64,000 bases of DNA from Candidatus Wolframiiraptor gerlachensis (lineage in GTDB: Archaea; Thermoproteota; Nitrososphaeria_A; Caldarchaeales; Wolframiiraptoraceae). The position numbers and the translations under genes are program-made. Shown here piece after piece: positions 6,309-32,363 of the stretch. The DNA lies in NCBI GenBank assembly GCA_021323375.2, contig JAJPCT020000018.1, forward strand, positions 55,079 through 119,078, written 5' to 3'. The notes beneath the pieces are model-generated. The model searched no databases. It worked only from the letters and a program-made list of their open reading frames with translations, and had not been told where the DNA came from. Position 1 is the first letter of the stretch, and each line of letters opens with the position of its first letter.

Positions 6309-7607
6309 TTACTCCCTGACTATCCTCAGCTTGATGGCGTGAACAGAGCATGAGATACATGGATCATAGTTTCTTATCGTAGTCTCTACTATGTGTTGCG
6401 CCTTTTCCGGGGGCCCACTCAAGATAAGATCCCCGACCTTGAATATGTCCTCCTCCATCGCGGCATAGTTCTGGGTTGTTGGCGGGACTATGTTCGCGTA
6501 GAGTATCCTACCCCTCTCATCTATCCTATAGCGGTGGTATAGCATCCCCCTCGGGGCCTCGACTATCGCAGCCGCCTCACCAGCCCTGACAACCGCCTCA
6601 ATATATGGAGCATGAGGTTCTGAATATTCCTCGATGAGCCTCCCTATCTCGATTATCGAGTGGAGGTTCTCGGCAGCCCTTGCCACGATGCTCTGATAAG
6701 TATTCTTGAGGGGGGCTTTGTATCCAGCCTTTTCTAGGATATCTTTAACCTCCGGCGCTAGGAGGTCGTAGTTTAGGTTGAACCTTGCGATGGGCCCGGT
6801 GATATATGACCTGCCATTCCTCAACCTGTAATGCAGGCCTGTGGAATACTTCTTCTGCTCAACAATGATGTTATCCTCGAAGGAGTCTTCCGGGAATTCC
6901 CAGCCCAAGTTGTTAGCAACCACGCCCTCGAGTATCGGGTACTCCTTCTTCCCCTTGAGGGACATAATGACCATGTCATACTCGATGTCCGGCAGATCTA
7001 GGTTTAGGATGAACTCGAGGAGCTTCTCGCCCTTCTTCCTAATCTCATCATAGTCGCGGGCCAGAGGTTCGAGCTCCTCTCTTCTTATGATCCTGTATAG
7101 ACCTCCAACCCTGAAGCCTATCGGGTGGATTGCGCGGCCCCCAATTATCTCTATTGCCCTATTACCCCAGCTCCTCACGGCGATGGCGTCCCTGACAAAG
7201 TCCGGGTAATCCCTCGCCATCTCGAGAGCGGAATGATATCCTAGGAAGTCCGGCGCATGGAGGAATGCGAAGTGCAGAACATGGCTCTCGATCCACTCGC
7301 CGTAGAAGGCTATCTTTCTAAGGATCTTTATCTCCTCTGGGATATCTATTCCGAGGATCTTCTCCATGGCCCTGCAGGCCGCAAAGATATAGGCGAGAGG
7401 ACATATGCCGCAGATCCTCGCTGTTATATCAGGCGCCTCAAGATAAGGTCTTCCGCGGAGAAATGCCTCAAAGAACCTCGGAGGCTCGAATATGTTGACC
7501 TCGACATAGTCTAACTTGCCATTCTTCACTCTTACCCAGACTCCTCCCTCACCCTCGACCCTCGCCAGCTGGCTGACCTTTATCTCGAAACTCTTACTCT
7601 CGCTCAT
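6309..7607 (-). CDS. hydA: NiFe hydrogenase large (alpha) subunit, cytoplasmic sulfhydrogenase type
   Basis: 432 aa. N-terminal RICGICPLAY and C-terminal DPCISCSVH Ni-binding motifs, with a 9-aa C-terminal extension for proteolytic maturation. It is the last gene of a B-G-D-A order operon. Confidence 0.9.
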   Translation of the reverse strand: MSESKSFEIKVSQLARVEGEGGVWVRVKNGKLDYVEVNIFEPPRFFEAFLRGRPYLEAPDITARICGICPLAYIFAACRAMEKILGIDIPEEIKILRKIAFYGEWIESHVLHFAFLHAPDFLGYHSALEMARDYPDFVRDAIAVRSWGNRAIEIIGGRAIHPIGFRVGGLYRIIRREELEPLARDYDEIRKKGEKLLEFILNLDLPDIEYDMVIMSLKGKKEYPILEGVVANNLGWEFPEDSFEDNIIVEQKKYSTGLHYRLRNGRSYITGPIARFNLNYDLLAPEVKDILEKAGYKAPLKNTYQSIVARAAENLHSIIEIGRLIEEYSEPHAPYIEAVVRAGEAAAIVEAPRGMLYHRYRIDERGRILYANIVPPTTQNYAAMEEDIFKVGDLILSGPPEKAQHIVETTIRNYDPCISCSVHAIKLRIVRE

Positions 7608-8379
7608 ACCTCTCCAGGAACCTCCTAATAGGATCAGACCAACCTGTAAAGCCTCTCAACCTAAGAATAACCTCCTCCTTTGGAAGGCCTATCTCCTCAA
7701 GCCTCCTAGCAAGCGCGTCGGGCTTCGGATCTATCATGGGGCCAAAGCATCCATAACATCCGCGGCCATAACTTGGGCAGAGGGCGCCGCATCCTTCAAC
7801 CATTATCGGTCCAAGGCATGGAATCCCCCGGGAAACCATCACGCAGACATTCCCCCCTCTCTTACACTCTTGGCACAAGCTCTCAAGCCTATGATAAGGC
7901 CTCCTACCAGTCAGCACCTGCTTCAAGACGCTGAAGAGCTGAAGCTCATTCACGGGGCATCCACTAACCTGATAATCCACCCTTATGTGGTCGGATACTG
8001 GCGTGGACTTCTCGAGGCTATTAATCCACTCCGGCTTCGGGTAAACCTGCTTGACAACATCCTGATAATTCATCCAGTTTCTCAACGACTGGATGCCGCC
8101 ATAGACAGCGCAAGTGCCTATCGCAATCACGATCCTCGAATTTTTCCTAATCTCCTTGACCAGCTCAACCTCATGCGGCGTTGAGACTGATCCCTCGATT
8201 AACGCGACGTCATATGGCCCCGGATCGATTCTGCTACTGGCCTCGAGGAAATACGCTATCTCGACCTTCTCAATTAGCGAGAGTAGGTTTTCTCCCAGAT
8301 CTATCAGCTTATCTTGGCACCCACTACATGACGAGAACTTGAAAACCGCTAACTTTGCTTTCTTATTATTCCCGCTCAT
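7594..8379 (-). CDS. hydD: NiFe hydrogenase small (delta) subunit
   Basis: 261 aa. Proximal-cluster Cys (FSSCSGC, GTCA, GCP) plus a C-terminal 8-Cys block CQEC-x6-C-x8-CLGP-x6-C-x3-C-x6-CYGC for two more 4Fe-4S clusters. Confidence 0.9.
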   Translation of the reverse strand: MSGNNKKAKLAVFKFSSCSGCQDKLIDLGENLLSLIEKVEIAYFLEASSRIDPGPYDVALIEGSVSTPHEVELVKEIRKNSRIVIAIGTCAVYGGIQSLRNWMNYQDVVKQVYPKPEWINSLEKSTPVSDHIRVDYQVSGCPVNELQLFSVLKQVLTGRRPYHRLESLCQECKRGGNVCVMVSRGIPCLGPIMVEGCGALCPSYGRGCYGCFGPMIDPKPDALARRLEEIGLPKEEVILRLRGFTGWSDPIRRFLERYERE

Positions 8380-9206
8380 ATCTCATCCACCCAGAAATAC
8401 TTCTTAATTAGCCAGTATGGGAATACGGGGCCATGTCTGCAGACGAAGTAGGGGCCCACTTGGCAGTGGCCGCAAAGCCCGATCCCGCACTTCATCCTCC
8501 TCTCTAGGGAGAAGTAGATCTGATTCTCCTTAAACCCGATCTGCTCAAGAGCCTTAACGGTGAACCTCATCATTATCTCGGGGCCGCAGACGAGGGCTAT
8601 AGTCCTCTCGACATCTATCCTCGCCATCGGTATAAGCTCTGTAACAACGCCGACATGATACCTCCAAGTCTCATCAGGGTGATCGACGGTAAGGAGGAAC
8701 TCCGTATTCGGTATCTCCCTATACCGGTCGAACTCATAGCGGTAGAGTAGGAGGCTGGGAGTTCTCGCTCCATAAAGTATCGTTAGCTTCCCATACTTCC
8801 CCCTATTCCTTTCAACCTCTAGGATGACTCCCCGGAGTGGCGCTAGCCCAATACCGCCAGCCACGATGAGCACATCCTTTCCAGCGAGCTTCTCGATTGG
8901 CCAGCCCTTACCATAGGGCCCCCTTATGCCAACCAAGTCGCCCTCACGCATCTTAAACAGGTAATCGGTCAATGCTCCAACAGATCTTACAGTCTGAACT
9001 AGGATCCCATCCTCCAACCCGCATATTGAGACGGGGGCCTCACCCACGCCTGGAACGTATACCTCGGTGAATTGCCCCGGCTTAGGCGCCTCAACGAGGC
9101 CCCCCTGTACTCTGAAGTAGAATGTCTTGGTATCTGGGGTCTCGGGGACTATCTTGACGATCTCGGCCCTAACCGGCACCATCGGAGTCCTGACTACCTC
9201 CTGCAC
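8376..9206 (-). CDS. hydG: Sulfhydrogenase gamma subunit (FAD/NAD(P)-binding oxidoreductase with 2Fe-2S)
   Basis: 276 aa. Ferredoxin-NADP reductase-like fold (LIVAGGIGLAPL) and a C-terminal CGIGLCGHCQVG cluster motif. It overlaps both neighbours. Confidence 0.85.
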   Translation of the reverse strand: MQEVVRTPMVPVRAEIVKIVPETPDTKTFYFRVQGGLVEAPKPGQFTEVYVPGVGEAPVSICGLEDGILVQTVRSVGALTDYLFKMREGDLVGIRGPYGKGWPIEKLAGKDVLIVAGGIGLAPLRGVILEVERNRGKYGKLTILYGARTPSLLLYRYEFDRYREIPNTEFLLTVDHPDETWRYHVGVVTELIPMARIDVERTIALVCGPEIMMRFTVKALEQIGFKENQIYFSLERRMKCGIGLCGHCQVGPYFVCRHGPVFPYWLIKKYFWVDEI

Positions 9207-10309
9207 CTCGTCTCCACCTCCTTCACCACATCTCTCACAACTTGCCTAAGATCTATTCCTGCGGGACACCAGGTTATGCACCTGCCGCATCCCACACATC
9301 CAAATGTCCCGAACTGCCTGATCCAATACACGAACTTGTGGAGAACCCAGTGCCTATACCTAGCGTAGAGGCTTTTCCTGAAGTGCCCCCCAGCGACCTG
9401 AGCATAGCTATAGCTATGGCATCCATCCCAGATCCTAATCCTCTTCGCGGATCCATCAAGCTCTGGCTCATCAATAACATCAAAGCAGAAGCATGTAGGG
9501 CATACCATATTACAATTAGCACAGCCGAAACATCTCTCAGCAATCTTCCTATAAACCTCCGAGTCTAATCCCATCTCGAGGGTCTCAGGAAGATTTTCCA
9601 GAGTGAACTCCGCTCGAGCCTTCTTAGACGCATCCAGCATGAGGTTTCTGAGGAAGTCAACCTGTTCATCCTCGGCAGGCCTGAGACTGAGCTCGCTGAG
9701 TATATCCACCCCGAGATCGCTCCCCGGCTGGAAGATTACAACGCCGCTGCCAACCCTAGTATAGGCCACATCGAATCCCTTGAAAGCAAACGGGCCCGTG
9801 CCCATGGTCGCGCAGAAGCATGTATCTCCAGGCTCCACGCAGTTCTCGACGATGAGAAGAAGGTTCTCCCTAACCTTCCGATAATACTCGTCTCCCAGCT
9901 CGCCCTGAACACCATCCATGACATTTATCGCAGCAAGATCACAAGGCTTTATACCGAAAAAGGCCGTCTTGTAGAACTCGAACCTCGGATATTCCACGCT
10001 CAGATCAGGCCTAATGATAAATAGGAGTAGCTCTGGGGGGTATAGGAACCTCTTTGGCGAGTCCGGGCCATGCCTGAACCTGCCGCCATTATTGACAACG
10101 CGATAATATCCAGGAGCCTGCTTATCCCCATAGCCATATGGGATCTCATTGAAATCATTTAATTGCTCAAGCCTTATGACGGAATTCACGAGCTTGGGCC
10201 CTATGACCCTATAACCTCTAGAAACCGCCACATTGAACAGCGACTTAAGGTCATCTTCCACACCGGAGTAGACCGACCCCCGGAACAACACTTGATCTGC
10301 GAAGATCAT
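9194..10309 (-). CDS. hydB: Sulfhydrogenase beta subunit (4Fe-4S dicluster protein)
   Basis: 371 aa. Motifs CFGCANCNMVCPTCFC and CVGCGRCITWCPAGI. It is the first gene of the four-gene operon. Confidence 0.85.
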   Translation of the reverse strand: MIFADQVLFRGSVYSGVEDDLKSLFNVAVSRGYRVIGPKLVNSVIRLEQLNDFNEIPYGYGDKQAPGYYRVVNNGGRFRHGPDSPKRFLYPPELLLFIIRPDLSVEYPRFEFYKTAFFGIKPCDLAAINVMDGVQGELGDEYYRKVRENLLLIVENCVEPGDTCFCATMGTGPFAFKGFDVAYTRVGSGVVIFQPGSDLGVDILSELSLRPAEDEQVDFLRNLMLDASKKARAEFTLENLPETLEMGLDSEVYRKIAERCFGCANCNMVCPTCFCFDVIDEPELDGSAKRIRIWDGCHSYSYAQVAGGHFRKSLYARYRHWVLHKFVYWIRQFGTFGCVGCGRCITWCPAGIDLRQVVRDVVKEVETRCRR

Positions 10310-10591: not shown

Positions 10592-11527
10592 TCAAAGCAC
10601 GCTCACATCGCATTTAACCGATCTATACCTTAACCTATCGATAATTTCATTTTCGCCGAGTTCTATATCCTCGAGATATCTTCTTATCGCCTCGTTGGCC
10701 AGCCTAATATCCTTTGAAAATATGGCTCTTATGGCCTTTTCACGAATATTCCGGCAACGTTCATAATATTCCGTAAGTTTTTGAAGTGTCTCCTTATCAA
10801 GTTCCACCTCGCAGGTCAGTATTTTTAGAACGCTCTTGGCGCCGAGCTTGGATAAATCGGCCATTCTTTCAAGGCAGTAGCCCATTATCGCGAGGAAAGA
10901 TATCTCCAATGGTTGTGTTATCCCTAGATTCTCGGCAAAATTCCTCTTCTTATGAGCGGTTGAGAGGGCTCTGGAGAATAGATAGTAGAGCTTATTTACC
11001 TCCTCATCCCTCAATATCACCATCTTAGCTAGTTCGCGATTCCCCTCAATAAACGCCCTGAAATACTCCTCCTGCATGGATGAGACCAAGTTACAGATCC
11101 TCTCTAGAATTGAATAGATTGAGGACTTAAGGACATCTACTATACATTGTAGCACGACGTGCTGCTCAGTCTCATCCATTACAGAGACCCCTGTCAGCAA
11201 TTTTAACGCCTCCCGGATCTCCTTGATATGCCTATAGCTTAAGCGAGTTTTTGAGATAATCTCGATCATGTCGACACCGGCAATATAGCTCGCAACAATC
11301 AGCCTGTTTAGAAGCCCGGGCTGATCGCATAGATCCGCATTTATCCTGCAGGCTTCAAGGGTATGGTCTGCGTCCGATTTAGCGGGCCACAATCTTAACG
11401 AACCATCATTATATTCTTCGATAACTATGGCGTCCCCCTGCTTAAGACCATGCTCCCTAACCCACCAGTAGGGTAAGGAGATTGTTAAAGTGCCCTTACC
11501 AACACGCTGTATCTTACGCTGCTCCAT
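10592..11527 (-). CDS. AbrB/SpoVT-domain plus PhoU-domain regulator (archaeal phosphate uptake regulator family)
   Basis: 311 aa. N-terminal swapped-hairpin AbrB motif (RKIQRVGKGTLTISLPYWWVREHGLKQGD) followed by two PhoU-like helical repeats. Confidence 0.75.
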   Translation of the reverse strand: MEQRKIQRVGKGTLTISLPYWWVREHGLKQGDAIVIEEYNDGSLRLWPAKSDADHTLEACRINADLCDQPGLLNRLIVASYIAGVDMIEIISKTRLSYRHIKEIREALKLLTGVSVMDETEQHVVLQCIVDVLKSSIYSILERICNLVSSMQEEYFRAFIEGNRELAKMVILRDEEVNKLYYLFSRALSTAHKKRNFAENLGITQPLEISFLAIMGYCLERMADLSKLGAKSVLKILTCEVELDKETLQKLTEYYERCRNIREKAIRAIFSKDIRLANEAIRRYLEDIELGENEIIDRLRYRSVKCDVSVL

Positions 11528-11658
11528 GAAATCCCCCAGTAAAATAGCATAATTTTCGCTAGATAAGATTTATTGTCCGAGGCCTAGGAGAAATTTAGGG
11601 TAAATACCTTATATACTGGAATATTTTTTCTATTTCTCTAGGTATATATCAAGCTGGT

Positions 11659-12156
11659 TTGGTAAATGCTTGGGGTAAAATGAGTGGGAAGATATGTTCC
11701 GGCAATCTGATCGAATCTCTCCAAAGAATTCAAGAAAAGCAAGGATTCTTGCCGAGAGACTCATTAATAAAGCTTTCCCGGGATACGCGGAGCCCTCTAA
11801 GCAGGATATTCGGTGTAGCGACATTTTACCACCAGTTCAGGCTGGAACCGCCTGGAAAAGTAACGATTGCTGTTTGCATGGGGACTGCATGCCATCTTAG
11901 GGGGAATGCTGAGAACTATGAATTTCTAAGGAGATTCTTGGGTATACGGCCCGACAGATCGACGAGCGATGATGGCCTATTCTCCTTGGAGAAGGCTAGA
12001 TGCTTTGGCTGCTGTAGCCTAGCCCCAGTGGTGAAGATCGGTGATATGCTCGTCGGCAAGGCCACGCCTAGGGAGCTTCAAAAGGCGATCTCCCGCGTTA
12101 GGGAGTCGATTCTGAGGGAGGAGGCTGCTCGCGGGGCTGGGGGTGGTAAGACATGA
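11659..12156 (+). CDS. NuoE/HoxE/HydC-like thioredoxin-like [2Fe-2S] subunit
   Basis: 165 aa. Contains ATFYHQF, CMGTACHLRG and CFGCCSLAPVV, the NuoE 24-kDa family Cys pattern. Confidence 0.85.
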   Translation: MVNAWGKMSGKICSGNLIESLQRIQEKQGFLPRDSLIKLSRDTRSPLSRIFGVATFYHQFRLEPPGKVTIAVCMGTACHLRGNAENYEFLRRFLGIRPDRSTSDDGLFSLEKARCFGCCSLAPVVKIGDMLVGKATPRELQKAISRVRESILREEAARGAGGGKT

Positions 12157-14126
12157 TGAGGCAGGAGTACTGGACATTAATGGATCCATGTTGCGATTAT
12201 TGTCTTCATTCTCGGGACAATCCTTGCGCGAAGTATGTTGTCTGCAGAATGCGCGGGCCATTCTGTCACAGGAGTGTGGAGTGTAGGGAGAAGAGGCAGC
12301 GGAGGATCAGGGAGGTGCTTTACGGCTCGCAGGGCGTTAGAATTAATATCGGTGCATCGAGCTGCGGCTTGGCTGCTGGCGCCGAACGGGTCCTCGAGGC
12401 CGTGAAAGATGGTCTCAGATCAATGGGCGTGGAGGCGGAGGTTTCCGCGGTGGGCTGTCTGGGATTATGCTTCATGGAGCCCTTCATCGAGATTCAGAGC
12501 GAGGATGGTCCATCTCCGATCTATGGCTATGTATCGCCCGAGAATGTTGGCGATATTCTTGCCAGGTATTTTGAGGAGGGGAGCGTGGATGGCGCATTCG
12601 CGATCAGGAAGCGCACGGGCAGATTCAAGGACGAGGATAAGGTCCCCCTCTTGGATGAGCTTGATGTCTGGAGGAAGCAGGTGAAATGGGTTTCTAGAAA
12701 CTGTGGTGTGATTAACCCGGAGTCGATCGAGGAGTATATTGTTACAGGCGGTTATGAGGGGCTTTCAAGAGCGCTGACGATGAGGCCTGAGGAGGTTATC
12801 GAGGAGATTAGGCTGGCGGGGCTTAGGGGTAGAGGTGGAGCCGGGTTCCCAACATGGCTCAAGTGGAAGATATGCCGCGAGCAGCCATCAGAGGAGAAGT
12901 ATGTCATCTGTAATGCTGATGAGGGTGATCCGGGGGCTTTCATGAATAGGCTCTTGGCGGAGTCTGATCCACACAGGGTGCTGGAGGGCATCATAATAGC
13001 TGGATACGCGATAGGCGCTTCTCAGGGCGTGATTTTTGTCAGGGCGGAGAAGCCCCTGATGGCTGCCAGGCTTGAGAAGGCCGTGGAGGATGCTCGCCGA
13101 TGGGGGCTTCTGGGCGAGAATATCCTCGGATCGGGATTCAGCTTCGATGTGAGGGTGATGAGGAGTGCTGGGGCATTTGTATGCGGGGAGGAGACGGCTA
13201 TGATAGCGGCTATCGAGGGGAGGCGTGCGATGCCGCGGCAGCGGCCACCATACCCAGCCTCTAAGGGCCTTTGGGATAAGCCAACGGTGGTCAATAACGT
13301 CGAGACGCTGGCGCATGTCGCGACGATAATGGCGCATGGATGGCGGGAGTTCGCGAAATATGGGACTGAGCGGAGCAAGGGGACGAAGATGTTCTGCGTA
13401 ACCGGCGGCGTTAAGAGGACAGGCGCATTCGAGGTTCCAATAGGCACCACGATCAGGACCCTCGTGTATGATATAGCTGGGGGGCCGCATGAAGGCAGAA
13501 GGATAAAGGCGGTTCAGATAGGAGGACCCTCAGGCGGGTGCCTCCCAGAGAGGCTATTCGACCTACCTATCGATTATGAGAGCCTTCAGGAGGCTGGCGC
13601 GATAATGGGCTCCGGGGGCCTAGTGGTCATAGATGACACTAACTGCATGGTTGATGTGGCGAGATACTTCACTTCATTCACCTTAGCCGAGTCTTGTGGT
13701 AAGTGTATACCATGCAGGGTTGGCACGAAGGCGTTGTATGACCGCTTATCCGCGATAGTTGAGGGTATGAGTAGCCAAGAGGACCTACAATTGCTCGAGG
13801 AGATTGGGATTATGATGAAGGAGGCGGCTCTATGCGCCTTAGGCGGGACCGCGCCAAATCCGATCCTATCATCACTCAGGTACTTTAGAGATGAATATGA
13901 GGCCCATATATTGGAGAAGAGATGCCCGGCGAAAGTTTGTAGAAAGCTTGTCTCATATGCTATAAACCGGGAGCTTTGCGTCAAATGTGGATTATGTGCC
14001 AAGTCATGTCCTGTGGGCGCGATAGCAAAAACAGCTGATGGTTACTTCATGATAGATGAGTCTAGGTGCATCAGATGTGGCACGTGCGTTATCACGTGTC
14101 CGAGAGGTGCTGTTGAGAAGAGGTGA
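12153..14126 (+). CDS. NuoF/HoxF/HydB-like NAD(P)H- and FMN-binding subunit with extra Fe-S domains
   Basis: 657 aa. NuoF core (GRGGAGFPTWLKW, CGKCIPCRVG), a C-terminal 2x[4Fe-4S] domain (CVKCGLCAKSCP, CIRCGTCVITCP), an N-terminal thioredoxin-like domain and a Cys-rich leader. Confidence 0.85.
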   Translation: MMRQEYWTLMDPCCDYCLHSRDNPCAKYVVCRMRGPFCHRSVECREKRQRRIREVLYGSQGVRINIGASSCGLAAGAERVLEAVKDGLRSMGVEAEVSAVGCLGLCFMEPFIEIQSEDGPSPIYGYVSPENVGDILARYFEEGSVDGAFAIRKRTGRFKDEDKVPLLDELDVWRKQVKWVSRNCGVINPESIEEYIVTGGYEGLSRALTMRPEEVIEEIRLAGLRGRGGAGFPTWLKWKICREQPSEEKYVICNADEGDPGAFMNRLLAESDPHRVLEGIIIAGYAIGASQGVIFVRAEKPLMAARLEKAVEDARRWGLLGENILGSGFSFDVRVMRSAGAFVCGEETAMIAAIEGRRAMPRQRPPYPASKGLWDKPTVVNNVETLAHVATIMAHGWREFAKYGTERSKGTKMFCVTGGVKRTGAFEVPIGTTIRTLVYDIAGGPHEGRRIKAVQIGGPSGGCLPERLFDLPIDYESLQEAGAIMGSGGLVVIDDTNCMVDVARYFTSFTLAESCGKCIPCRVGTKALYDRLSAIVEGMSSQEDLQLLEEIGIMMKEAALCALGGTAPNPILSSLRYFRDEYEAHILEKRCPAKVCRKLVSYAINRELCVKCGLCAKSCPVGAIAKTADGYFMIDESRCIRCGTCVITCPRGAVEKR

Positions 14127-14791
14127 TGGTGATGAAGGTTAGGATAAATGGTTTGGAGGTGGAGGCAAGGGAGGGCGAGAGGATACTCGATGTCGCCAAT
14201 CGCCTGGGCATTAGGATACCAACCCTCTGCTATCTCAAAAATGTGTATGAGGGCGCCTCCTGCAGAATCTGCGTCGTCGAGCTAGGTAATGGAAAGTTGA
14301 TACCAGCCTGCGCCTATGAGGTGTCCGATGGCCTCACTATCAGCACCGATACTCCGAGGATTAGGGAGAGCAGGAGGGTGACGCTGGAGCTGCTGCTCTC
14401 TGCTCATAGGATTACGTGCCAGAATTGTCCCAAGAAGGGTGAGTGCACCCTAGTGGAGCTATGCTCCGAGTACGGTGTTGAGGGGATACCAGTATGCGCC
14501 GAGTGCCCTCTCCACGGAGAGGACTGCTTCATCGCGAGGAGCGAGATCTGCCTAGGCCCGATCACGGCTAGCGGATGCAAAGCTGAGTGTATTCGCGATG
14601 GGAGGACTTGCGAGGGCTGCAGGGGTCCAGTCACGAGGAGAGACGTGATAGAGTGGGCTAGAGGGATTTACATCGAGCATGGCATATCGTTGGAGGCGGT
14701 TCTTGAGAAGCTCAAGACATATTGTGCTTCATCACGCGAATTCGACCTAATTCGCGAGTATCTTGTGGTGAAGGAGGTGGTTGAGGGATGA
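14123..14791 (+). CDS. Fusion protein: 2Fe-2S ferredoxin + His-ligated 4Fe-4S module (HoxU/NuoG/HydA N-terminal type) + C-terminal half of a NiFe small subunit
   Basis: 222 aa. N-terminus has CYL...CRIC...C, then HRITCQNCPKKGEC. The C-terminal 8-Cys block CAEC-x6-C-x7-CLGP-x6-C-x3-C-x6-CEGC is nearly superimposable on the C-terminus of the in-window paralog at 7594..8379. Confidence 0.8.
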   Translation: MMVMKVRINGLEVEAREGERILDVANRLGIRIPTLCYLKNVYEGASCRICVVELGNGKLIPACAYEVSDGLTISTDTPRIRESRRVTLELLLSAHRITCQNCPKKGECTLVELCSEYGVEGIPVCAECPLHGEDCFIARSEICLGPITASGCKAECIRDGRTCEGCRGPVTRRDVIEWARGIYIEHGISLEAVLEKLKTYCASSREFDLIREYLVVKEVVEG

Positions 14792-16077
14792 TGAGTGTTC
14801 CTGGTATTGATAGGATAGTGGGCCACGCGACCCTGGACATAGATATGGAGAGAGGGGCGCTGGATGCGCGTTTCAAGGTCTTGAATGATCCACGCTTCAT
14901 AGAGGCCATAGTGCTAGGGAAGAAGTATTATGAGGTTCCATCAATTGTCTCTAGGATATGTGGGCCATGTAGCATAAGCCATACGATAACCGCTACGATG
15001 GCCATAGAGAAGGCTCTTGGAGTGAGCGTCCCGGAGCCGGTGAGAATTCTCAGGAGGATAGCTGTGCTTGGGGAAGTGGTTGAGAACCATCTCCTACATC
15101 TCACGCTGGTGTGCTTGCCGGAATACTTTGGATATGCCGATCTTATTGAGGTCGCCAAGTATAAGCCAGAGCTCCTCAAGAGCATACTGCTCATCAGGTC
15201 ACAGCTTTCCAAGATCATGGAAATGATCTCTGGGAGGCTCGTCCACCCGAACACGCTGATGATAGGTGGGTTCTCCAAGACCCTTGGGAAGACGAAGCTC
15301 GAGGAGGCGAGGAACATGTTAAGGGAGATCAGGGGCAAGATCATCGATATCGCGGAAATATTTCTCGAGATCGAGTTCCCCGAGTTCGAGGTGATAATGG
15401 AAGCATGCGCATCCCTGAGGGACGACTACCTCTACATCGGGGATGAGATAATCACCTCGGATGAACGGAGGGTTAGAGCGGAGGATTATAGGAAGGTGTT
15501 CATAGAGGATGTGCAGCCATATACGACTTCGAAGAGGGTGACGCTTGAGGGGCTGCCCGTATACGTTGGGGCTAGGGCGAGGGTGAACTTGAAGGCCGAC
15601 ATGCTCTCAGAGAGGGCTAAATCCTATCTCAAGGCGAGGAGATTCCCGCTGAGAAACCCGTTCGATAATCTAAGGGCGCAGGCCATAGAACTGATTCACT
15701 GCATGGATGCCATGGAAATGTTAATTGAGGAGGTTCTCAATATCCTCGAAGCCAAGTCAATTCATGTAGGATCAGGGATCATGATTAGGGAGGGTGCTGG
15801 TGTTGGGGTGTCTGAGGCCCCCCGCGGCATACTAATCCACCATTATGAGGTTAATTGCTGGGGCAACGTGGTCTATGCCAACGTGATAACGCCAACGACA
15901 ATAAATTGTAGGCACGTGGAGGTCGCGGCCCTGGAGCTTATCAGGCACTATTTCTACGAGGATGCACCGGCCACTGAGATAGAACGCTACCTGAGAAAGC
16001 TCGTGCAGGCATATGACCCATGTCTCGGCTGCGCAACCCACTCGGTCAAGATAAACATTAGGGGGTTGAAAGCATGA
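14788..16077 (+). CDS. NiFe hydrogenase large subunit (second hydrogenase)
   Basis: 429 aa. Motifs RICGPCSISH and C-terminal DPCLGCATH, followed by a 12-aa extension. Confidence 0.9.
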   Translation: MMSVPGIDRIVGHATLDIDMERGALDARFKVLNDPRFIEAIVLGKKYYEVPSIVSRICGPCSISHTITATMAIEKALGVSVPEPVRILRRIAVLGEVVENHLLHLTLVCLPEYFGYADLIEVAKYKPELLKSILLIRSQLSKIMEMISGRLVHPNTLMIGGFSKTLGKTKLEEARNMLREIRGKIIDIAEIFLEIEFPEFEVIMEACASLRDDYLYIGDEIITSDERRVRAEDYRKVFIEDVQPYTTSKRVTLEGLPVYVGARARVNLKADMLSERAKSYLKARRFPLRNPFDNLRAQAIELIHCMDAMEMLIEEVLNILEAKSIHVGSGIMIREGAGVGVSEAPRGILIHHYEVNCWGNVVYANVITPTTINCRHVEVAALELIRHYFYEDAPATEIERYLRKLVQAYDPCLGCATHSVKINIRGLKA

Positions 16078-17462
16078 GGATCGGCATATACTCATTCGGC
16101 GGATGCGAGGGCTGCAGATACTGGCTAATAGACTCGATGCTGAGAGTATGCGAGGAACTTGGCGCCGAGATAGTCTATGAGCCCCTCATCGGGCTTTCCA
16201 AGGAGAACCCCGAATACGATTTGGTAATCATCGAGGGGGCTGTCTGCACCGACGAGGACTCCGAGAAGCTCCAGAGACTGAGATCTCGAGCGAAGTATCT
16301 CGTCGCCCTAGGCTCCTGTGCCCTGCTCAGCGGTGTGCCAGGCCTTAAGAGGTTCACGGATCCACGCGCGGCCGAGATGGTCTACTTTGGCAAGCCGTTG
16401 CCGAAGAAGCCGGTTGACGTGAAGCCGATAACTGCCTATATTCATGTAGATTATTGGATCAGGGGATGCCCGCCGGATCGAGAGAACTTCGAGAGGCTCT
16501 TTAGGGCCATAATCTCCGGCATCGCCTCCGGGAGGCCTTTCAAGCTCCATGAGAGGAGACTGGAATTCTGCAGGGAGGAATTCACGAGCATCGAGGGAAG
16601 CGTGCTAAGGCTCGACGGCGACAAGTGCATGGTCTGCGGTAGATGTGTCGGCGCCTGCGAGAGGATGGGAGTCTACGCGATAGACTATGCGTACAGGAGC
16701 ATAAGCACAGTCGTGACAACGCCCTTCTCAATACCCTTCGATGAGAGCACATGTGTGCTATGCGGCCAGTGTACGCTCGTCTGCCCGGTCGGCGCGATCC
16801 GCGAGAGGAGTGACCTAGAAAAGGTTCAAAGAATTCTATCAAGGCCCACGGCGCTAAGAGCTTACATAGAGCCTGAGAGCCTAGCAGCTATGTCCAGCTA
16901 CTTCAACCGCGAGGTCGAGGTAATCATTGGAGCGCTTATCGCCAGAGGCTTTGAGAGCGTTGCAATATATGTGCCCGAGTATCACGCCGATGTCGAGAGA
17001 CCGCTGATCCCCGCGAGCGAGGCCGAAAGGAGATTTATCAACATATTCTATCCACAGCTAGCTGAACTATTGTCGGAGCCGCCGGCTCCGCCGGGAGGAT
17101 CATCAGTCCTGATAACGCCGTGCTTAGCTAAGAAGGCGCAGGCCCGTGAGGGATTAGTATTAACAACTCGCGAGGCGATCAAGCTAATCTCCAACATCGA
17201 CTTGGACGAGGTCGAGGGGACCCTCCCCATAATGCCCTCCAGAAAAAGCATCACCTTCAGGGAGGTTCATGGGCCGGATAACGTGATTAGGTTCCTAGAG
17301 GAATATACGAGGGGGGTGCGCGTCAAGGAGCCGATGATACTTAAGATGTGCCCAGGCGGATGCCTTGGAGGCGGAGGACAACCATACTATAACGAGGACC
17401 TCTATCGGAGGATGAATGAGGCGCTTGCGAGGATATCTTCCACGCTCCTAGTCATTGATTGA
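16074..17462 (+). CDS. Fusion protein: N-terminal half of a NiFe small subunit + 2x[4Fe-4S] ferredoxin + degenerate [FeFe]-hydrogenase H-cluster-like domain
   Basis: 462 aa. Residues 1-150 align with the N-terminus of 7594..8379 (FGGCEGC, GSCA, GCP). Next come CMVCGRCVGACE and CVLCGQCTLVCPVGAI. The C-terminus has FeFe-hydrogenase L2-like ITPCLAKKAQA and L3-like KMCPGGCLGGGGQP, but no L1 TSCCP. Confidence 0.8.
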   Translation: MRIGIYSFGGCEGCRYWLIDSMLRVCEELGAEIVYEPLIGLSKENPEYDLVIIEGAVCTDEDSEKLQRLRSRAKYLVALGSCALLSGVPGLKRFTDPRAAEMVYFGKPLPKKPVDVKPITAYIHVDYWIRGCPPDRENFERLFRAIISGIASGRPFKLHERRLEFCREEFTSIEGSVLRLDGDKCMVCGRCVGACERMGVYAIDYAYRSISTVVTTPFSIPFDESTCVLCGQCTLVCPVGAIRERSDLEKVQRILSRPTALRAYIEPESLAAMSSYFNREVEVIIGALIARGFESVAIYVPEYHADVERPLIPASEAERRFINIFYPQLAELLSEPPAPPGGSSVLITPCLAKKAQAREGLVLTTREAIKLISNIDLDEVEGTLPIMPSRKSITFREVHGPDNVIRFLEEYTRGVRVKEPMILKMCPGGCLGGGGQPYYNEDLYRRMNEALARISSTLLVID

Positions 17463-17930
17463 ATCCAGCTCGAGCAGGCGGGATATACTCTCCAATATTT
17501 TCGGGATCGCTTTCTCCACCTCCTCACTCAATCCTATTCCCGGACTTATCTCCTTGGCTCCCACGCCGACTAAGAGGATCCTGCGGGGCATTTTATCCCT
17601 GAAGAGCTCGTATCCCAGCCTGATAGCTGAGACCACGTCAATATCATGCAGCGATTGAATTTCACCGACATGCTCCTGAGACAGCCCACCCAGATCCACC
17701 ACGACCACCTCGCCCGGAGATAATCCGGATTTGACGACATCGACTATTATCAAGCCGTCAAATCCTGTGATCTCGTCCAGGAGCGTGAAGACGTCTAAGC
17801 CTGTTTCAAAGATCTTTACCTCGGCTGGTAGATCGCGCTTGAGAAGGATCTCGCCCACGACTAGGCCGAGAGCATCATCTTTCATGAGCCTGCTGCCAAC
17901 ACATAGTATCAGGATTTTTCGGGCCCTCAT
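17448..17930 (-). CDS. Hydrogenase maturation endopeptidase (HycI/HyaD family)
   Basis: 160 aa. N-terminal ILILCVGSRLMKDDALG matches the GNxxxxDDGxG-type motif. It lies beside hypE/hypD and converges on the hydrogenase operon. Confidence 0.8.
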   Translation of the reverse strand: MRARKILILCVGSRLMKDDALGLVVGEILLKRDLPAEVKIFETGLDVFTLLDEITGFDGLIIVDVVKSGLSPGEVVVVDLGGLSQEHVGEIQSLHDIDVVSAIRLGYELFRDKMPRRILLVGVGAKEISPGIGLSEEVEKAIPKILESISRLLELDSIND

Positions 17931-17983: not shown

Positions 17984-19051
17984 CTAGCAGATCCTGGGAA
18001 CCGGGTCTCCAAGGGGCATCGGCAGATATCTTAGCCCACCTATCTCGGTCTCAACGACGACCCCCTCAAGCTCATCGGAGAACCATCCTATTATCTCGGC
18101 CTCGCGGCCTAGTGGATGAGAGCGGAGGGCTTCCAAGACCTCCTCCGCGAACCTCTCGGAGACCGCTAGGACAACTCTTCCCTCGCATGCCAGTTCAAGC
18201 GGATCTATCCCCAGTATCTCGCAGCCGATTCTCACCTCATCGCGGACCGGTATAAGGGCTTCTTTCACGAGTATGCCGAGGCCCGTGGCCTCGCTCCACT
18301 CATTTAGAAGAGCCGCCAACCCCCCTCTAGTTGGATCCTTCGCCGCCACAACCCCTCCCACCTCGAGAGCCCTCTTCATGAGATGATTCAATGGCGCGGT
18401 ATCCGATTTTAGGCCCGGCGCCTCGAAGCCAAGCTCACCCCTAGCAGCTATAATTGTCATCGCATGGTCGCCGATGGGCCCCGAGACTATCAGCCTATCT
18501 CCCGGCCTCACATTCCGGGGATCAAGCCATCTCGATCTCAGGGATCTCCCATCAGATGCCACCCTCTCCAAGTTCTTATCCAAGTATGGGCTCCTCCCAC
18601 CGATGCCAGCCGTGTTGATTATCATCTCATCGAGCTTGCCCCTTTCCACGACCTTTGTGTCGCCTGTCACGATCTCGACGCCAGCCTCCTCAGCCGTCTC
18701 CTCCATGCTCGATAGAATCCTATCCAGCTTCTCTATCTCGAAGCCCTCCTCGATCACTAAAGCGCATGAGATTGCTATGGGCTCGCTTCCCACCACTGAG
18801 AGATCGTTCACGGTCCCGGAGACGCTGAGCCTCCCTATATCGCCTCCAGGGAAGAAGAGGGGCTTAACGGTATAGGAGTCTGTCGTGAACGCTATCCCAT
18901 CGACAACAGCCGAGTCGGCGAGGAGGGGGAGAGGGATCTCAATAACCCTCCTCTGCTTAAACCTTGGAAGAATATGCTCCCTGATAAGCTTATGCATGTA
19001 GAGGCCGCCAGCACCATGTGCTATGCTTATCCTATTATCCACGCCCACCAA
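17984..19051 (-). CDS. hypE: Hydrogenase expression/formation protein HypE
   Basis: 355 aa. AIR-synthase-like fold and the hallmark C-terminal PRIC. Confidence 0.93.
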   Translation of the reverse strand: MVGVDNRISIAHGAGGLYMHKLIREHILPRFKQRRVIEIPLPLLADSAVVDGIAFTTDSYTVKPLFFPGGDIGRLSVSGTVNDLSVVGSEPIAISCALVIEEGFEIEKLDRILSSMEETAEEAGVEIVTGDTKVVERGKLDEMIINTAGIGGRSPYLDKNLERVASDGRSLRSRWLDPRNVRPGDRLIVSGPIGDHAMTIIAARGELGFEAPGLKSDTAPLNHLMKRALEVGGVVAAKDPTRGGLAALLNEWSEATGLGILVKEALIPVRDEVRIGCEILGIDPLELACEGRVVLAVSERFAEEVLEALRSHPLGREAEIIGWFSDELEGVVVETEIGGLRYLPMPLGDPVPRIC

Positions 19052-19076: not shown

Positions 19077-20252
19077 TCAGGGGCCTCGCCTCACGATTAA
19101 TCCACAGACCCCGCTCATACATCTGATATCCTTAACCAATATCCTGTTCTGAGCCCATATCCTGCATGTTCCCTCAATCCCAACCATCGCCGGGCCCACC
19201 GGAGTCGATGGGGTACACTTCTTCATGTATAGGGGGCAGTCCGGTGGATCAATAATCCCCTTTATTATCTCGGCGCATCTAGCCTCCGACGGGAAGCAGT
19301 CTCCTCCTCCATGCTCTAGGCCATAAGTCCTTCTAGCATCAACTTGGGAGAACATTTCCTTAAAGTTCATGGCACTTTCAGGTATTATCGCGACACCTCT
19401 CCAATAGCCATCCTCGAAATCGAAGACCTCTTGGAGAGCCTTCTGCGCCTTCAGGTTCCCCTCCCACGTCACAGATCTCACATACTCGTTCTCCATCCTC
19501 GGGGCGCGATCCCTTAGCTGCTTGAGAACCATGTAGATCGCCATCAAGACGTCTATGGGCTCGAAGCCCGCGAAGACCATCGGCTTGCCACACTTATCGA
19601 AATACGGCTTATACGCCTTCATACCGCTCACGGTCGAGGCGTGGCCCGGATTTATGAAAGCATCTATCTCGAGATCCTCGGATTCCGCTAGAAGCCCGAC
19701 AGCCGGCGGGACATACCTGTGGGCGGAGAGGACCTTAAGGTTTCTCGGAAGCCCCTTCAGGACGAAATAGGCCACGGTTGGCGCCGTGGTCTCAAAGCCT
19801 GCTCCAAGGAATACATACTCCTTATCCGGGTTACTGCTAGCGATCTTGACAGCATCCATGAAGCTATACACAACCCCAACCCTCCCACCCTCAGCAGCAC
19901 AATCCTCCAGCGAGATCATCCTAGAACCCTTAGCCCTAGACACATCACCATAGGTAAGCACATGGATCCCATCAAGCGCGAGCCCGACGGCCACATCTAT
20001 ATCAGATGCAGGGGTTATGCAGACTGGGCAGCCGGGTCCAGCCCTAACCTCAACATTATCCGGCAGAAGAGCCCTAATACCCCAATGAGTTATGGTCCAC
20101 TCATGAGTCCCACACACATGCATTATCCTAACCCTCGGAAGATCCCTAGCAACCTCCCAGATCTTCTCAACTAGCCTCCTAGCAAGAGCTGGATCCCTAT
20201 ATCTCGAAAGAATCACCCTCACACGATCCAAGGACCCCATACCATCTATCAC
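19077..20252 (-). CDS. hypD: Hydrogenase expression/formation protein HypD
   Basis: 391 aa. Contains the GPGCPVC motif, CGTHE and C-terminal Cys motifs. Confidence 0.93.
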   Translation of the reverse strand: MIDGMGSLDRVRVILSRYRDPALARRLVEKIWEVARDLPRVRIMHVCGTHEWTITHWGIRALLPDNVEVRAGPGCPVCITPASDIDVAVGLALDGIHVLTYGDVSRAKGSRMISLEDCAAEGGRVGVVYSFMDAVKIASSNPDKEYVFLGAGFETTAPTVAYFVLKGLPRNLKVLSAHRYVPPAVGLLAESEDLEIDAFINPGHASTVSGMKAYKPYFDKCGKPMVFAGFEPIDVLMAIYMVLKQLRDRAPRMENEYVRSVTWEGNLKAQKALQEVFDFEDGYWRGVAIIPESAMNFKEMFSQVDARRTYGLEHGGGDCFPSEARCAEIIKGIIDPPDCPLYMKKCTPSTPVGPAMVGIEGTCRIWAQNRILVKDIRCMSGVCGLIVRRGP

Positions 20253-31341: not shown

Positions 31342-32271
31342 CTAGGATTTCTCGAATCTTCTTCTTAGCTCCATAATTAGCTCCTCTAGGCTTGTGTACG
31401 TATCTTTTCTTAGCTGTTTTAGTATGACGCTTGCCGGGACCCGTGTCTTAGGATCTATGTCTATCAGCTTCCACCCATGCATTTTGATGAGCTCCTGCTT
31501 TGTCGCCGGGAATCTTGCGCCCCTCAGGACCTCCTCAAGCGAGTCTATTCCGAACTTTGATGTGACGGGTGGAAGCTCGCCCCTCTTCAGGAACTTCTCC
31601 ATTCTCGCTGCATCGAGATACATCGCTATCCCATGGAAGCTCAGGTATACCTTCTTGGATTTCCTCCTCTCAGCCCTCTCCCTGATCTCCTTTAAGTCCT
31701 CATCCGTGAGCTGGTATATGTTATGCTCACCCTTCCCAAATATCCTGCTATAAGCTATCTCCTCATCATCATATGGTGGATCCTCCCTCGAGTAGTCCGC
31801 GACAGGTATAATGTTCATGCTCTTTAGGGCTTCTATGGTTTCAGTTGAGCCCGCCGCCCACCCGCATCTGGGCTCGAGGACGAGCCTGACATCCCCCAGA
31901 TCCACATGATCGAGGATCCTTGAGAGGTTTATCTCGATCTCCTTGAGATTCATGCTTCTCGGGACCTCCAGCACTATTATCCTCGATCCCAGTATCCTGC
32001 ATAGTTCTAGGTGCTTCTCCAGCAGCTCTATAAGTTGACTTGATGGTGTAAGCCTCCACTTATGGGTGATGAGCCTATTGGCCTTTATCGAGAACTCGAA
32101 GCTGCTTGGAACCCTCCTTCTCCATGAGGCGACGATCTCGATCTTCGGGAGGCTGTAGAACGTGGAATTCACCTCGACGAATCTAAATGCTAGAGAGTAG
32201 AGTTTCAATGGATCCTCGCCCAGCGCCTGGAAATAGCTCCAACCACCACATCCAATGATTATCTCTGCCAT
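31342..32271 (-). CDS. DUF72 (YecE/UPF0759) family protein with C-terminal DUF2795-like domain
   Basis: 309 aa. DUF72 N-terminus (IIGCGGWSYF ... VEVNSTFYSLP). The C-terminal roughly 70 aa (RGARFPATKQELI ... YTSLEELI) resemble DUF2795. Confidence 0.7.
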   Translation of the reverse strand: MAEIIIGCGGWSYFQALGEDPLKLYSLAFRFVEVNSTFYSLPKIEIVASWRRRVPSSFEFSIKANRLITHKWRLTPSSQLIELLEKHLELCRILGSRIIVLEVPRSMNLKEIEINLSRILDHVDLGDVRLVLEPRCGWAAGSTETIEALKSMNIIPVADYSREDPPYDDEEIAYSRIFGKGEHNIYQLTDEDLKEIRERAERRKSKKVYLSFHGIAMYLDAARMEKFLKRGELPPVTSKFGIDSLEEVLRGARFPATKQELIKMHGWKLIDIDPKTRVPASVILKQLRKDTYTSLEELIMELRRRFEKS

Positions 32272-32363
32272 ACCCGGCGCATCCCGCCGGCTCTATCTAG
32301 TCAAATAAGCCTTCGGAGATTTATATTCATAGGGCTCAAGCTTCATGATGGGGCTCCCGAGGG

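Follow-up and report, generated by a model that had tools for sequence, protein, structure and literature searches.

The window analyzed here, a stretch of 64,000 nucleotides (64 kb) from the hot-spring archaeon Candidatus Wolframiiraptor gerlachensis (contig JAJPCT020000018.1, positions 55,079 to 119,078), carries a five-gene hydrogenase operon, hydC, hydB, hydD, hyhL, and the fusion gene hyhS::hydA (genes 1 to 5; order C-B-D-L-SA), and this locus is a variant of a published archaeal hybrid hydrogenase type. All coordinates are window positions and are collected in Table 1. As described in the initial annotation, which was made from the sequence without database searches, the five open reading frames (ORFs) lie on the + strand and overlap by 4 nucleotides at every junction. 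The junctions read, in order, ATGA, GTGA, ATGA, and ATGA, which is the pattern expected of translational coupling. Translation of hydC likely begins not with the TTG at 11659 but with the ATG at position 11680, as suggested by a TATA-like sequence, TATATAT, ahead of the gene at 11643-11649. The output of a sigma-70 promoter and terminator scan was set aside as not meaningful for an archaeon.

Table 1. Genes and domains of the five-gene operon and of the neighboring genes, in window coordinates (aa, amino acids)
Feature	Position	Strand	Evidence or remark
hydC, gene 1 (BfuC/NuoE-like; C1 [2Fe-2S])	11659-12156	+	PF01257, E 2.6e-37
hydB, gene 2 (BfuB), 657 aa	12153-14126	+	Pfam, NCBIfam, solved-structure matches
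hydD, gene 3, 222 aa	14123-14791	+	Pfam, NCBIfam, solved-structure matches
hydD N-half, HydA/NuoG N-terminus-like	14123-14485	+	PF13510, PF10588
hydD C-half, putative C-terminal half of group-3 NiFe small subunit	14486-14791	+	BLASTP, NCBIfam, 9nez_A
hyhL, gene 4, NiFe large subunit, 429 aa	14788-16077	+	PF00374
hyhS::hydA fusion, gene 5, 462 aa	16074-17462	+	PF01058, PF02906
hyhS N-half in gene 5, flavodoxin-like small-subunit domain, residues 1-167	16074-16574	+	PF01058, E 2.2e-20
HydA-type 2x[4Fe-4S] ferredoxin-like domain, gene 5 residues ~175-250	16596-16823	+	8a6t_A, 7p5h_A
Putative remnant [FeFe]-hydrogenase H-domain, ~225 aa, gene 5 residues ~238-462	16785-17462	+	PF02906, 24.7 bits
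NiFe hydrogenase maturation endopeptidase	17448-17930	-	TIGR00072, E 1.4e-29
hypE	17984-19051	-	TIGR02124, E 7e-112; NiFe cofactor maturation
hypD	19077-20252	-	TIGR00075, E 2.9e-117; NiFe cofactor maturation
Candidate regulator, PhoU-like domain	10592-11527	-	Weak TIGR02135 PhoU match, E 1.3e-8
Group-3b sulfhydrogenase-like beta	9194-10309	-	Neighboring operon
Group-3b sulfhydrogenase-like gamma	8376-9206	-	Neighboring operon
Group-3b canonical delta small subunit	7594-8379	-	Neighboring operon
Group-3b alpha subunit	6309-7607	-	Neighboring operon; only 30% identity to HyhL
hypF	3943-6255	-	After group-3b alpha

Genes 1 and 2 encode a flavin module. The product of gene 1 was recovered as the NuoE-type 2Fe-2S protein that had been proposed for it, with the candidate [2Fe-2S] ligands C73, C78, C115, and C119 (residue numbers count from the TTG). 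HydB consists of a CCxxC prefix (residues 8-55), a thioredoxin-like B5 domain (64-139), a domain for flavin mononucleotide (FMN) and nicotinamide adenine dinucleotide, NAD(H) (219-390), and an SLBB domain, followed toward the C terminus by the B1 [4Fe-4S] cluster (ligands C515, C518, C521, and C561), the B2/Zn site (C498, H585, C591, and C596), and the B3/B4 2x[4Fe-4S] region (603-653). Pfam and NCBIfam agreed with the earlier view of gene 2 as a NuoF-type subunit extended by a C-terminal 2x[4Fe-4S] domain, a thioredoxin-like domain, and a leader with Cys and His, which matches the NCBIfam family NF040902 'NuoF_pre_CCxxC' (63.5 bits versus a cut-off of 45). BfuB is defined by a 51K FMN domain, an SLBB domain, a NuoF 4Fe-4S region, and a ferredoxin-type 4Fe-4S domain (Schut 2022, PMC9304861), and this four-domain architecture was found in HydB, with PF01512, PF10531, PF10589, and PF00037 all exceeding their cut-offs.

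Clusters B2-B5 are absent from non-bifurcating homologues (Schut 2022, PMC9304861), in line with the proposal that extra clusters in HydB distinguish enzymes of the flavin-based electron-bifurcating (Bfu) type from plain HoxF or NuoF, and HydB carries the sequence features of all of them. The top seven solved-structure matches of HydB were all subunits of electron-bifurcating complexes (618-701 bits), the best being the archaeal NfnB 9n5u_B (701 bits) and the NiFe-HydB of Acetomicrobium mobile, 7t2r_B (673 bits), compared to about 400 bits for plain NuoF and 259 bits for HoxF of the Hox enzymes. The comparison of cluster ligands proposed in the initial annotation gave every Bfu-specific residue that can be tested by sequence. 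The B2 residues C498, H585, C591, and C596 align with C438, H525, C531, and C536 of A. mobile, and the Bfu signature GDPGAFMNR is present at HydB 258-266 (PGAFM; compare A202 and M204 of A. mobile), while the third Bfu-specific residue, F182 of A. mobile, is not mappable with the Protein Data Bank (PDB) numbering. A flavin module of the Bfu/HydB type is well supported by this agreement.

The CCxxC prefix of HydB (NF040902; window 12174-12317) contains 7 Cys and 2 His, which are kept in most Thermoproteota and Bathyarchaeia homologues. The prefix is missing from Pyrobaculum (locus L011), from loci L012, L082, and L083, and from all solved Bfu structures, and it could hold an extra cluster or zinc.

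Genes 3 to 5 had been assigned HydA-type N-terminal clusters plus a NiFe module, which was borne out, and the description was incomplete, since the division of the small subunit and an FeFe-like domain had been missed. HydA and the NiFe small subunit are each split, and their halves are, by sequence alignment, cross-fused around the large-subunit gene, because both small-subunit halves map onto the canonical delta subunit of the adjacent group-3b operon (7594-8379, - strand), which served as the internal control: delta residues 9-173 correspond to gene 5 and 168-255 to gene 3. The N-half of HydD contains ligands of a [2Fe-2S] cluster (C36, C47, C50, and C63) and of a His-ligated [4Fe-4S] cluster (H95, C99, C102, and C108), and residues 4-127 were covered by the solved structures 7q4v_A, 8a6t_A, and 7t2r_A. 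Its C-half has eight invariant Cys (125, 128, 135, 143, 152, 156, 163, and 166), which would bind two [4Fe-4S] clusters, medial and distal. This half matched delta residues 168-255 (BLASTP E 4e-11), the NCBIfam ShyD/HydD C terminus (E 2.5e-13), and 9nez_A, which covers 161-245. In 30 homologues all 16 HydD cluster ligands were invariant. The C-half was assigned from these alignments, since the top 50 Foldseek matches of the gene 3 model covered its N-terminal 117 aa only.

In gene 5, PF01058 spans residues 11-144 and PF02906 spans residues 344-434. The HyhS N-half provides the proximal [4Fe-4S] ligands C11, C14, C82, and C132; it aligned with residues 9-173 of the neighboring delta subunit (BLASTP E 5e-18) and with the solved structure of HydS, 7t2r_E. 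Between this half and the H-like domain lies the HydA-type ferredoxin-like domain with two ligand sets (C185, C188, C191, C195 and C227, C230, C233, C237), which matched residues 131-255 of 8a6t_A (81 bits) and also 7p5h_A. Among 20 homologues of gene 5, both of these ligand sets were invariant (alignment A2), as were C82 and C132 of the proximal cluster, and C11 and C14 were nearly so.

The large subunit HyhL contains the motifs RICGPCSISH (56-65), APRG (344-347), and DPCLGCATH (410-418) and an 11-aa C-terminal extension, and keeps the four Ni-ligand Cys, the Arg of APRG, and the cleavable C-terminal tail. Clustering with ordinary Hox enzymes, named in the initial annotation as an outcome that would speak against bifurcation, was not found: the best solved-structure match of HyhL was the group 3b alpha subunit 5yxy_A (214 bits), compared to 132 bits for Hox and 119 bits for A. 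mobile HydL, and the top matches of HydB were bifurcating enzymes. The best NCBIfam match of HyhL was ShyA with 274 bits, versus a cut-off of 700.

An anomaly of HyhL is V11 (DRIVGH), which stands where the proton-gate Glu of R-x-E-G-H is canonical. The corresponding residue, E28 of Escherichia coli Hyd-1, has been called 'a universal proton gate', and the E28Q variant is defective in proton transfer (PMC8020662). The 24 closest HyhL clusters that cover the N-terminal motif (P0294-P0319, at least 36% identity) all read RxVGH or xVFGH; two further close clusters truncated before the motif were left out of this count. Val, Phe, or Ala was found at the gate position in the genome loci (L001, L003, L005, L006, L008-L013, L082, and L083). 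Glu was kept in 28 of the 29 more distant HyhL hits, with Phe in the exception, P0330, and is also present in the neighboring group 3b alpha subunit and in the Thermoplasmata HyhL. Confidence in a textbook function of the NiFe site is lowered because the gate Glu is replaced.

The HyhL proteins of L009, L010, and L013 end exactly at the C-terminal His (...CSVH, ...CAVH) and have no extension, compared to the 11-aa tail and the adjacent protease gene of the window.

The C-terminal part of gene 5 is an H-like domain of about 225 aa, versus about 370 aa in bacterial HydA. Motif 2 reads PCLAKK (C350 and K353) and motif 3 reads MCPGGCLGGGGQP (numbered MC426PGGC430LGGGGQP, where C430 is the bridging Cys). 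Motif 1 is replaced by P313-A-S-E-A-E318, without Cys (alignments A1 and A2), so that three of the four H-cluster Cys are kept (C350, C426, and C430, each of them invariant among the homologues). Gene 5 was not filed as a bona fide group F [FeFe] hydrogenase because this ligand set is incomplete. Among 116 bacterial-type motif-1 hits, 88 read TSCSPGW and 27 read TSCCPGW, the Ser aligning with CpI residue 300; the loss of motif 1 does not depend on which of the bacterial Cys is the cluster ligand, since the whole segment of gene 5 from residue 238 to 349 contains zero Cys. An AlphaFold2 model of gene 5 had a mean predicted local distance difference test score (pLDDT) of 76-97 per 10-residue block over residues 241-460, and its best Foldseek matches were FeFe hydrogenases (8a6t_A, E 1.5e-17); in the model, the H-domain fold is retained.

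The family of gene 5 was small, with roughly 30 clusters. Across the short-domain clade, P-x-S-E-A-E is almost invariant in place of motif 1. The motif-1 Cys was missing in 30 of the 33 family clusters, and the other three have a Cys at the x position (LVPCSIA, LIPCSEA, and IIPCCYSA), a pattern that points to a probable secondary loss of the ligand in most lineages, that of the window included. When a profile of the family was run against 1.84 billion representatives, the next-best relatives were longer fusions of 563-580 aa, one of them in a cluster named Thermoplasmata, which retain the motif-1 Cys (ATWCPAA, TSWCPSA) together with motifs 2 and 3; Thermoplasmata fusions read (S/T/F)WCP or FCP at motif 1. 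This motif set is consistent with the 'true H-cluster domain' of Greening 2024 (PMC11216029). Loss of the motif-1 Cys and loss of the HyhL Glu do not co-vary, as L082 and L083 keep the Cys yet read RIVGH and RVVGH. On these sequence grounds, the H-like domain of the window is most likely a non-catalytic remnant and not a second catalytic site. By analogy it probably still holds a [4Fe-4S] cluster on three Cys and a non-Cys ligand, as a dead-end branch.

Two further members of the wider family were recorded. One, P0138 (859 aa) from the representative search, is a HyhS::HydA-type fusion with LSWCKGA at motif 1 and with an N-terminal response-regulator receiver and a histidine-kinase domain, which suggests a sensory version of the fusion. 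The other, L083 (3412-8464 of GCA_017601265.1, JAFNJA010000037.1), encodes a short-family fusion with a CC pair at motif 1 (IIPCCYSA) and with motifs 2 and 3; its HydB (558 aa) has the B2 site and is missing the C-terminal 2x[4Fe-4S] domain, and the locus may be an intermediate form.

Of the known systems, the closest in gene content are the 'hybrid hydrogenases' of 21 archaeal genomes, in which a HyhS::HydA fusion is contiguous with HyhL, HydB, HydC, and a four-cluster HydD (Greening 2024, Cell, PMC11216029), the same set of components as in the window. They were classed as group F [FeFe] and group 3f [NiFe], an AlphaFold2 model of the archaeal five-subunit hybrid predicted a bifurcating/confurcating complex, and two Thermoplasmata fusion proteins evolved H2 following artificial maturation (PMC11216029). 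Neither Caldarchaeales nor Nitrososphaeria is mentioned in the main text of that paper. The Thermoplasmata hybrid shares with the window a HydD with the small-subunit C-half, collinear at 47% identity. In contrast to the window operon, the Thermoplasmata locus L081 (2427-7830) is arranged C-B-SA-D-L; it encodes as HydB a plain NuoF of 413 aa that reads PGTFK and lacks the thioredoxin-like domain, the B2 tail, and the 2x[4Fe-4S] domain, compared to the 657-aa BfuB with the CCxxC prefix; its fusion of 576 aa has a larger H-domain with ATWCPAA, compared to 462 aa and a short H-domain without the motif-1 Cys; and the Thermoplasmata HyhL has Glu (RIEGH) where the window HyhL has Val. By the sequence criteria of Schut, L081 would not be a Bfu-type bifurcator, though the published model treats hybrids as bifurcating.

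The NiFe-HydABCSL of A. mobile, for which structure and biochemistry are known, bifurcates and confurcates with NAD and ferredoxin (Feng 2022, PMC8880783; PDB 7T2R/7T30). It likewise joins a Bfu core (HydB, 673 bits, and HydC) to a NiFe module through HydA-type clusters, and its H-domain no longer binds an H-cluster. The two differ in that HydA of A. mobile is a single protein of 692 aa and its HydS another of 179 aa that carries the proximal cluster only, whereas in the window both are split and cross-fused and the two-cluster C-half is kept; HydL of A. mobile is Hox-like, whereas the window large subunit is closest to group 3b; and the B2 site of A. mobile has five ligands (with C476), whereas that of the window has three Cys and one His. 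In gene 3 the motif of the His-ligated cluster adjoins the small-subunit C-half, an adjacency along the sequence, as distinct from distances in space, that may be compared with the feeding of NiFe electrons through A3 in A. mobile. The A. mobile-type layout (Bfu Type 3), with a single HydA and a one-cluster HydS, was rejected for the window in view of the split genes 3 and 5.

The FeFe-HydABC enzymes of Thermotoga maritima (7P5H), Thermoanaerobacter kivui (8A6T), and Acetobacterium woodii (7Q4V) share a HydB at 618-637 bits and a homologous HydC, and genes 3 and 5 find their best matches, by sequence and by structure, in the HydA N-terminal clusters and 2x[4Fe-4S] domain of these enzymes. The window differs from them in its incomplete H-cluster site and in the insertion of a NiFe large subunit and of the two halves of a small subunit. 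The Nfn-BfuABC of Thermococcus sibiricus (9N5U; PMC12018979) is an archaeal Bfu enzyme with the best HydB match and with a Zn-type B2 site of three Cys and one His, and differs in that a modified BfuA gives it NADP(H) in place of H2 as the third substrate. With the group 3b sulfhydrogenases of Pyrococcus furiosus and Thermococcus kodakarensis, the window shares the best matches of HyhL (5yxy_A, ShyA) and the alignment of its small-subunit halves to delta, and differs in the loss of the proton-gate Glu; membership in group 3b was rejected, as the NCBIfam scores were far below the equivalog cut-offs and no beta or gamma (AsrA/AsrB-like) gene is in the operon. HoxEFUYH (group 3d) likewise has a NuoE/F/G-type diaphorase and a NiFe dimer in one operon, and membership was rejected, as HoxF is without B2-B5 features (259 bits) and HoxH scored 132 bits.

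With a confidence only a little above even, and by homology to solved Bfu structures for both the cluster order and the mechanism, we read the operon as encoding, in a fermentative thermophilic archaeon, a cytoplasmic five-subunit Bfu (HydABC-type) hydrogenase that would bifurcate or confurcate electrons between H2, NAD, and ferredoxin (Fd). In this scheme, the NiFe site in HyhL would produce or cleave H2, and electrons would move from there through the proximal cluster of the HyhS N-half in gene 5 to the two small-subunit C-half clusters on HydD. They would continue to the His-ligated [4Fe-4S] cluster, only ~15 residues upstream in the same polypeptide, then through the HydA-type 2x[4Fe-4S] domain of gene 5 to the [2Fe-2S] cluster of HydD, and on to cluster B1 and FMN in HydB. 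There, FMN, B1, and the C1 [2Fe-2S] cluster of HydC would act, as they do in solved Bfu enzymes, as a 'flavobicluster' at which electron pairs are split or merged, with one branch leading to NAD(H) and the other to ferredoxin, by way of a mobile HydC domain and clusters B3/B4, near which ferredoxin would dock. The H-like domain would lie off this path, its cluster ending a side branch as A5 does in A. mobile. The predicted reaction is 2 H2 + NAD+ + 2 Fd(ox) <-> NADH + 2 Fd(red) + 3 H+. Its likely direction is confurcating H2 production, given that Wolframiiraptor ferments sugars and is rich in tungsten enzymes that reduce ferredoxin (PMC9246946).

Several observations weigh against this assignment. 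The fifth B2 ligand of A. mobile, C476, corresponds to V536 in HydB; Thr occupies that position in FeFe-HydABC and in the Nfn-Bfu of T. sibiricus, whose B2 sites bind Zn (PMC12018979), and in sequence V536 matches the Zn-type site of these other active Bfu enzymes. The H-like domain is strongly conserved (C350, C426, C430, and GGGQP) with a confident H-domain fold, and rare relatives retain the motif-1 Cys, so that a catalytic or cofactor role of this domain is possible. The HyhL clade is without the gate Glu, and its NiFe site may be slow or may use another proton route. A true dual-site hybrid, in which the fused FeFe-type domain and the NiFe subunit both activate H2 on one bifurcating core as modeled by Greening, is in our judgment unlikely. 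It would account for the presence of the same five components as in the published hybrid, the PF02906 match, the conservation of motifs 2 and 3 including bridging C430 and K353, a gene 5 model structurally closest to FeFe hydrogenases, and the one or two motif-1 Cys retained in L082 and L083. HydEFG is, moreover, reported to be absent from most archaea with FeFe hydrogenases (PMC11216029). In favor of the main reading, the maturation genes hydE, hydF, and hydG were not found in the 64-kb window, to which the search was confined. The absence of Cys from residues 238-349, however, removes one ligand of [4Fe-4S]H and the adjacent relay position, in 30 of the 33 family clusters the Cys is missing, the domain of ~225 aa is below the 33-kDa 'ultraminimal' active enzyme (PMC11216029), the positions of the bacterial APS read EPE, and the residue before the motif-2 Cys is T. 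It is likewise quite improbable that the H-like remnant and the NiFe site have co-evolved into one unit, in which, for example, the invariant SEAE and EPE would supply a proton path or gate, or three Cys and a Glu would carry a non-standard cofactor; if true, such a unit would carry out NiFe catalysis within a bifurcating complex in a manner not known before.

An impaired or regulatory NiFe module is distinctly unlikely; with its gate lost, the main role of the complex would be that of a ferredoxin:NAD(H) oxidoreductase or of a redox valve that senses H2 or is gated by it. The clade-wide Val, Phe, or Ala in place of the gate Glu, with the defect of E28Q in E. coli Hyd-1 (PMC8020662), would fit such a module, as would the HyhL proteins without a C-terminal extension (L009, L010, and L013) and the three Bathyarchaeia loci in which hyhL is missing inside the cluster. 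Yet HyhL of the window has lost neither the Ni ligands nor the Arg nor the cleavable tail, its gene lies beside maturation genes and is tightly coupled translationally in the operon, and the clade has been kept across several archaeal lineages, which argues for a selected function. Very little weight is given to a non-bifurcating, NAD(H)-linked soluble hydrogenase of the Hox kind with structural extra domains in HydB. NuoE/NuoF/NuoG-type modules do occur in non-bifurcating Hox, formate dehydrogenase (Fdh), and complex I, and the related Thermoplasmata hybrid with its plain 413-aa NuoF and PGTFK indicates that non-bifurcating versions of the scaffold exist. The window HydB, in contrast, has the B2 His/Cys site, B3/B4, B5, and PGAFM, all absent from non-bifurcating homologues per Schut, and scores 618-701 bits with bifurcating BfuB compared to 259 bits with HoxF, and HyhL is not Hox-like.

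With electron-bifurcating hydrogenases, anaerobes can produce or consume H2 close to the thermodynamic limit. To our knowledge, only one NiFe electron-bifurcating hydrogenase has been characterized, and it is bacterial. This is the NiFe HydABCSL of A. mobile, to which the initial annotation had rightly pointed as a known bifurcating enzyme (PMC8880783). Its suggestion that the archaeal layout is new did not hold, as the gene set has been described by Greening 2024 (PMC11216029) and archaeal NiFe-Bfu enzymes had been predicted earlier by Schut 2022 (PMC9304861). At most two points are new, namely, the occurrence of a true Bfu core together with a degenerate FeFe domain and the clade-wide loss of the gate Glu. 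Neither the short three-Cys H-like domain nor the loss of the HyhL gate Glu was found described in the main texts of the papers cited here. In the one Thermoplasmata locus examined, a fuller FeFe domain is paired with a plain NuoF, whereas in the clade of the window a degenerate FeFe domain is paired with a true BfuB; given this inverse pairing, the enzymes that are 'hybrid' may not be the ones that are 'bifurcating'. For the NiFe mechanism, the absence of the gate Glu throughout the clade is a testable anomaly, and as W. gerlachensis has been grown in culture, an archaeal NiFe-Bfu enzyme could be experimentally reachable.

The closest genome locus is that of Candidatus Wolframiiraptor allenii, with 87-95% protein identity over the five genes. 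The C-B-D-L-SA order was found in ten further loci, nine in named Thermoproteota metagenome-assembled genomes (Wolframiiraptor, Desulfurococcales/Desulfurococcaceae, Thermofilaceae/Thermofilum, and Pyrobaculum) and one in an unclassified archaeal metagenome-assembled genome. Named protein hits came from Njordarchaeales, Odinarchaeota, 'Asgardarchaeia', Bathyarchaeia, and Nitrososphaerota, and those of the HyhL clade from Nitrososphaerota, Thermoprotei, Bathyarchaeia, and Asgard lineages. The enzyme of this operon is not discussed in the published Wolframiiraptor papers. Three Bathyarchaeia loci (L004 7300-13934, L007, and L014) have the order hydC-hydB-hydD-hyhS::hydA', in which hyhL is missing from its place after hydD, and in L004 a convergent HdrA/MvhD-MvhG-MvhA (group 3c) operon lies directly downstream.

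In the window, the five-gene operon is part of a hydrogenase island, with the group-3b operon and hypF upstream in divergent orientation and the protease gene, hypE, and hypD downstream in convergent orientation. The maturation endopeptidase gene is convergent with gene 5 and overlaps it by 15 base pairs. The PhoU-like gene is divergent from hydC and sits between both hydrogenase operons; its position makes it a candidate regulator. The window also holds archaeal housekeeping genes for fibrillarin, the thermosome, and the proteasome. Near an Opp-type ABC transporter, the segment 25056-27632 (- strand) contains two ORFs that may together be a split or diverged substrate-binding protein: one of 283 aa, which aligns with just the central part of the SBP_bac_5 profile, and one of 537 aa, for which Pfam gave no match. 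Two adjacent divergent DUF72 paralogues, of 309 aa (- strand) and 391 aa (+ strand), are located at 31342-33539.

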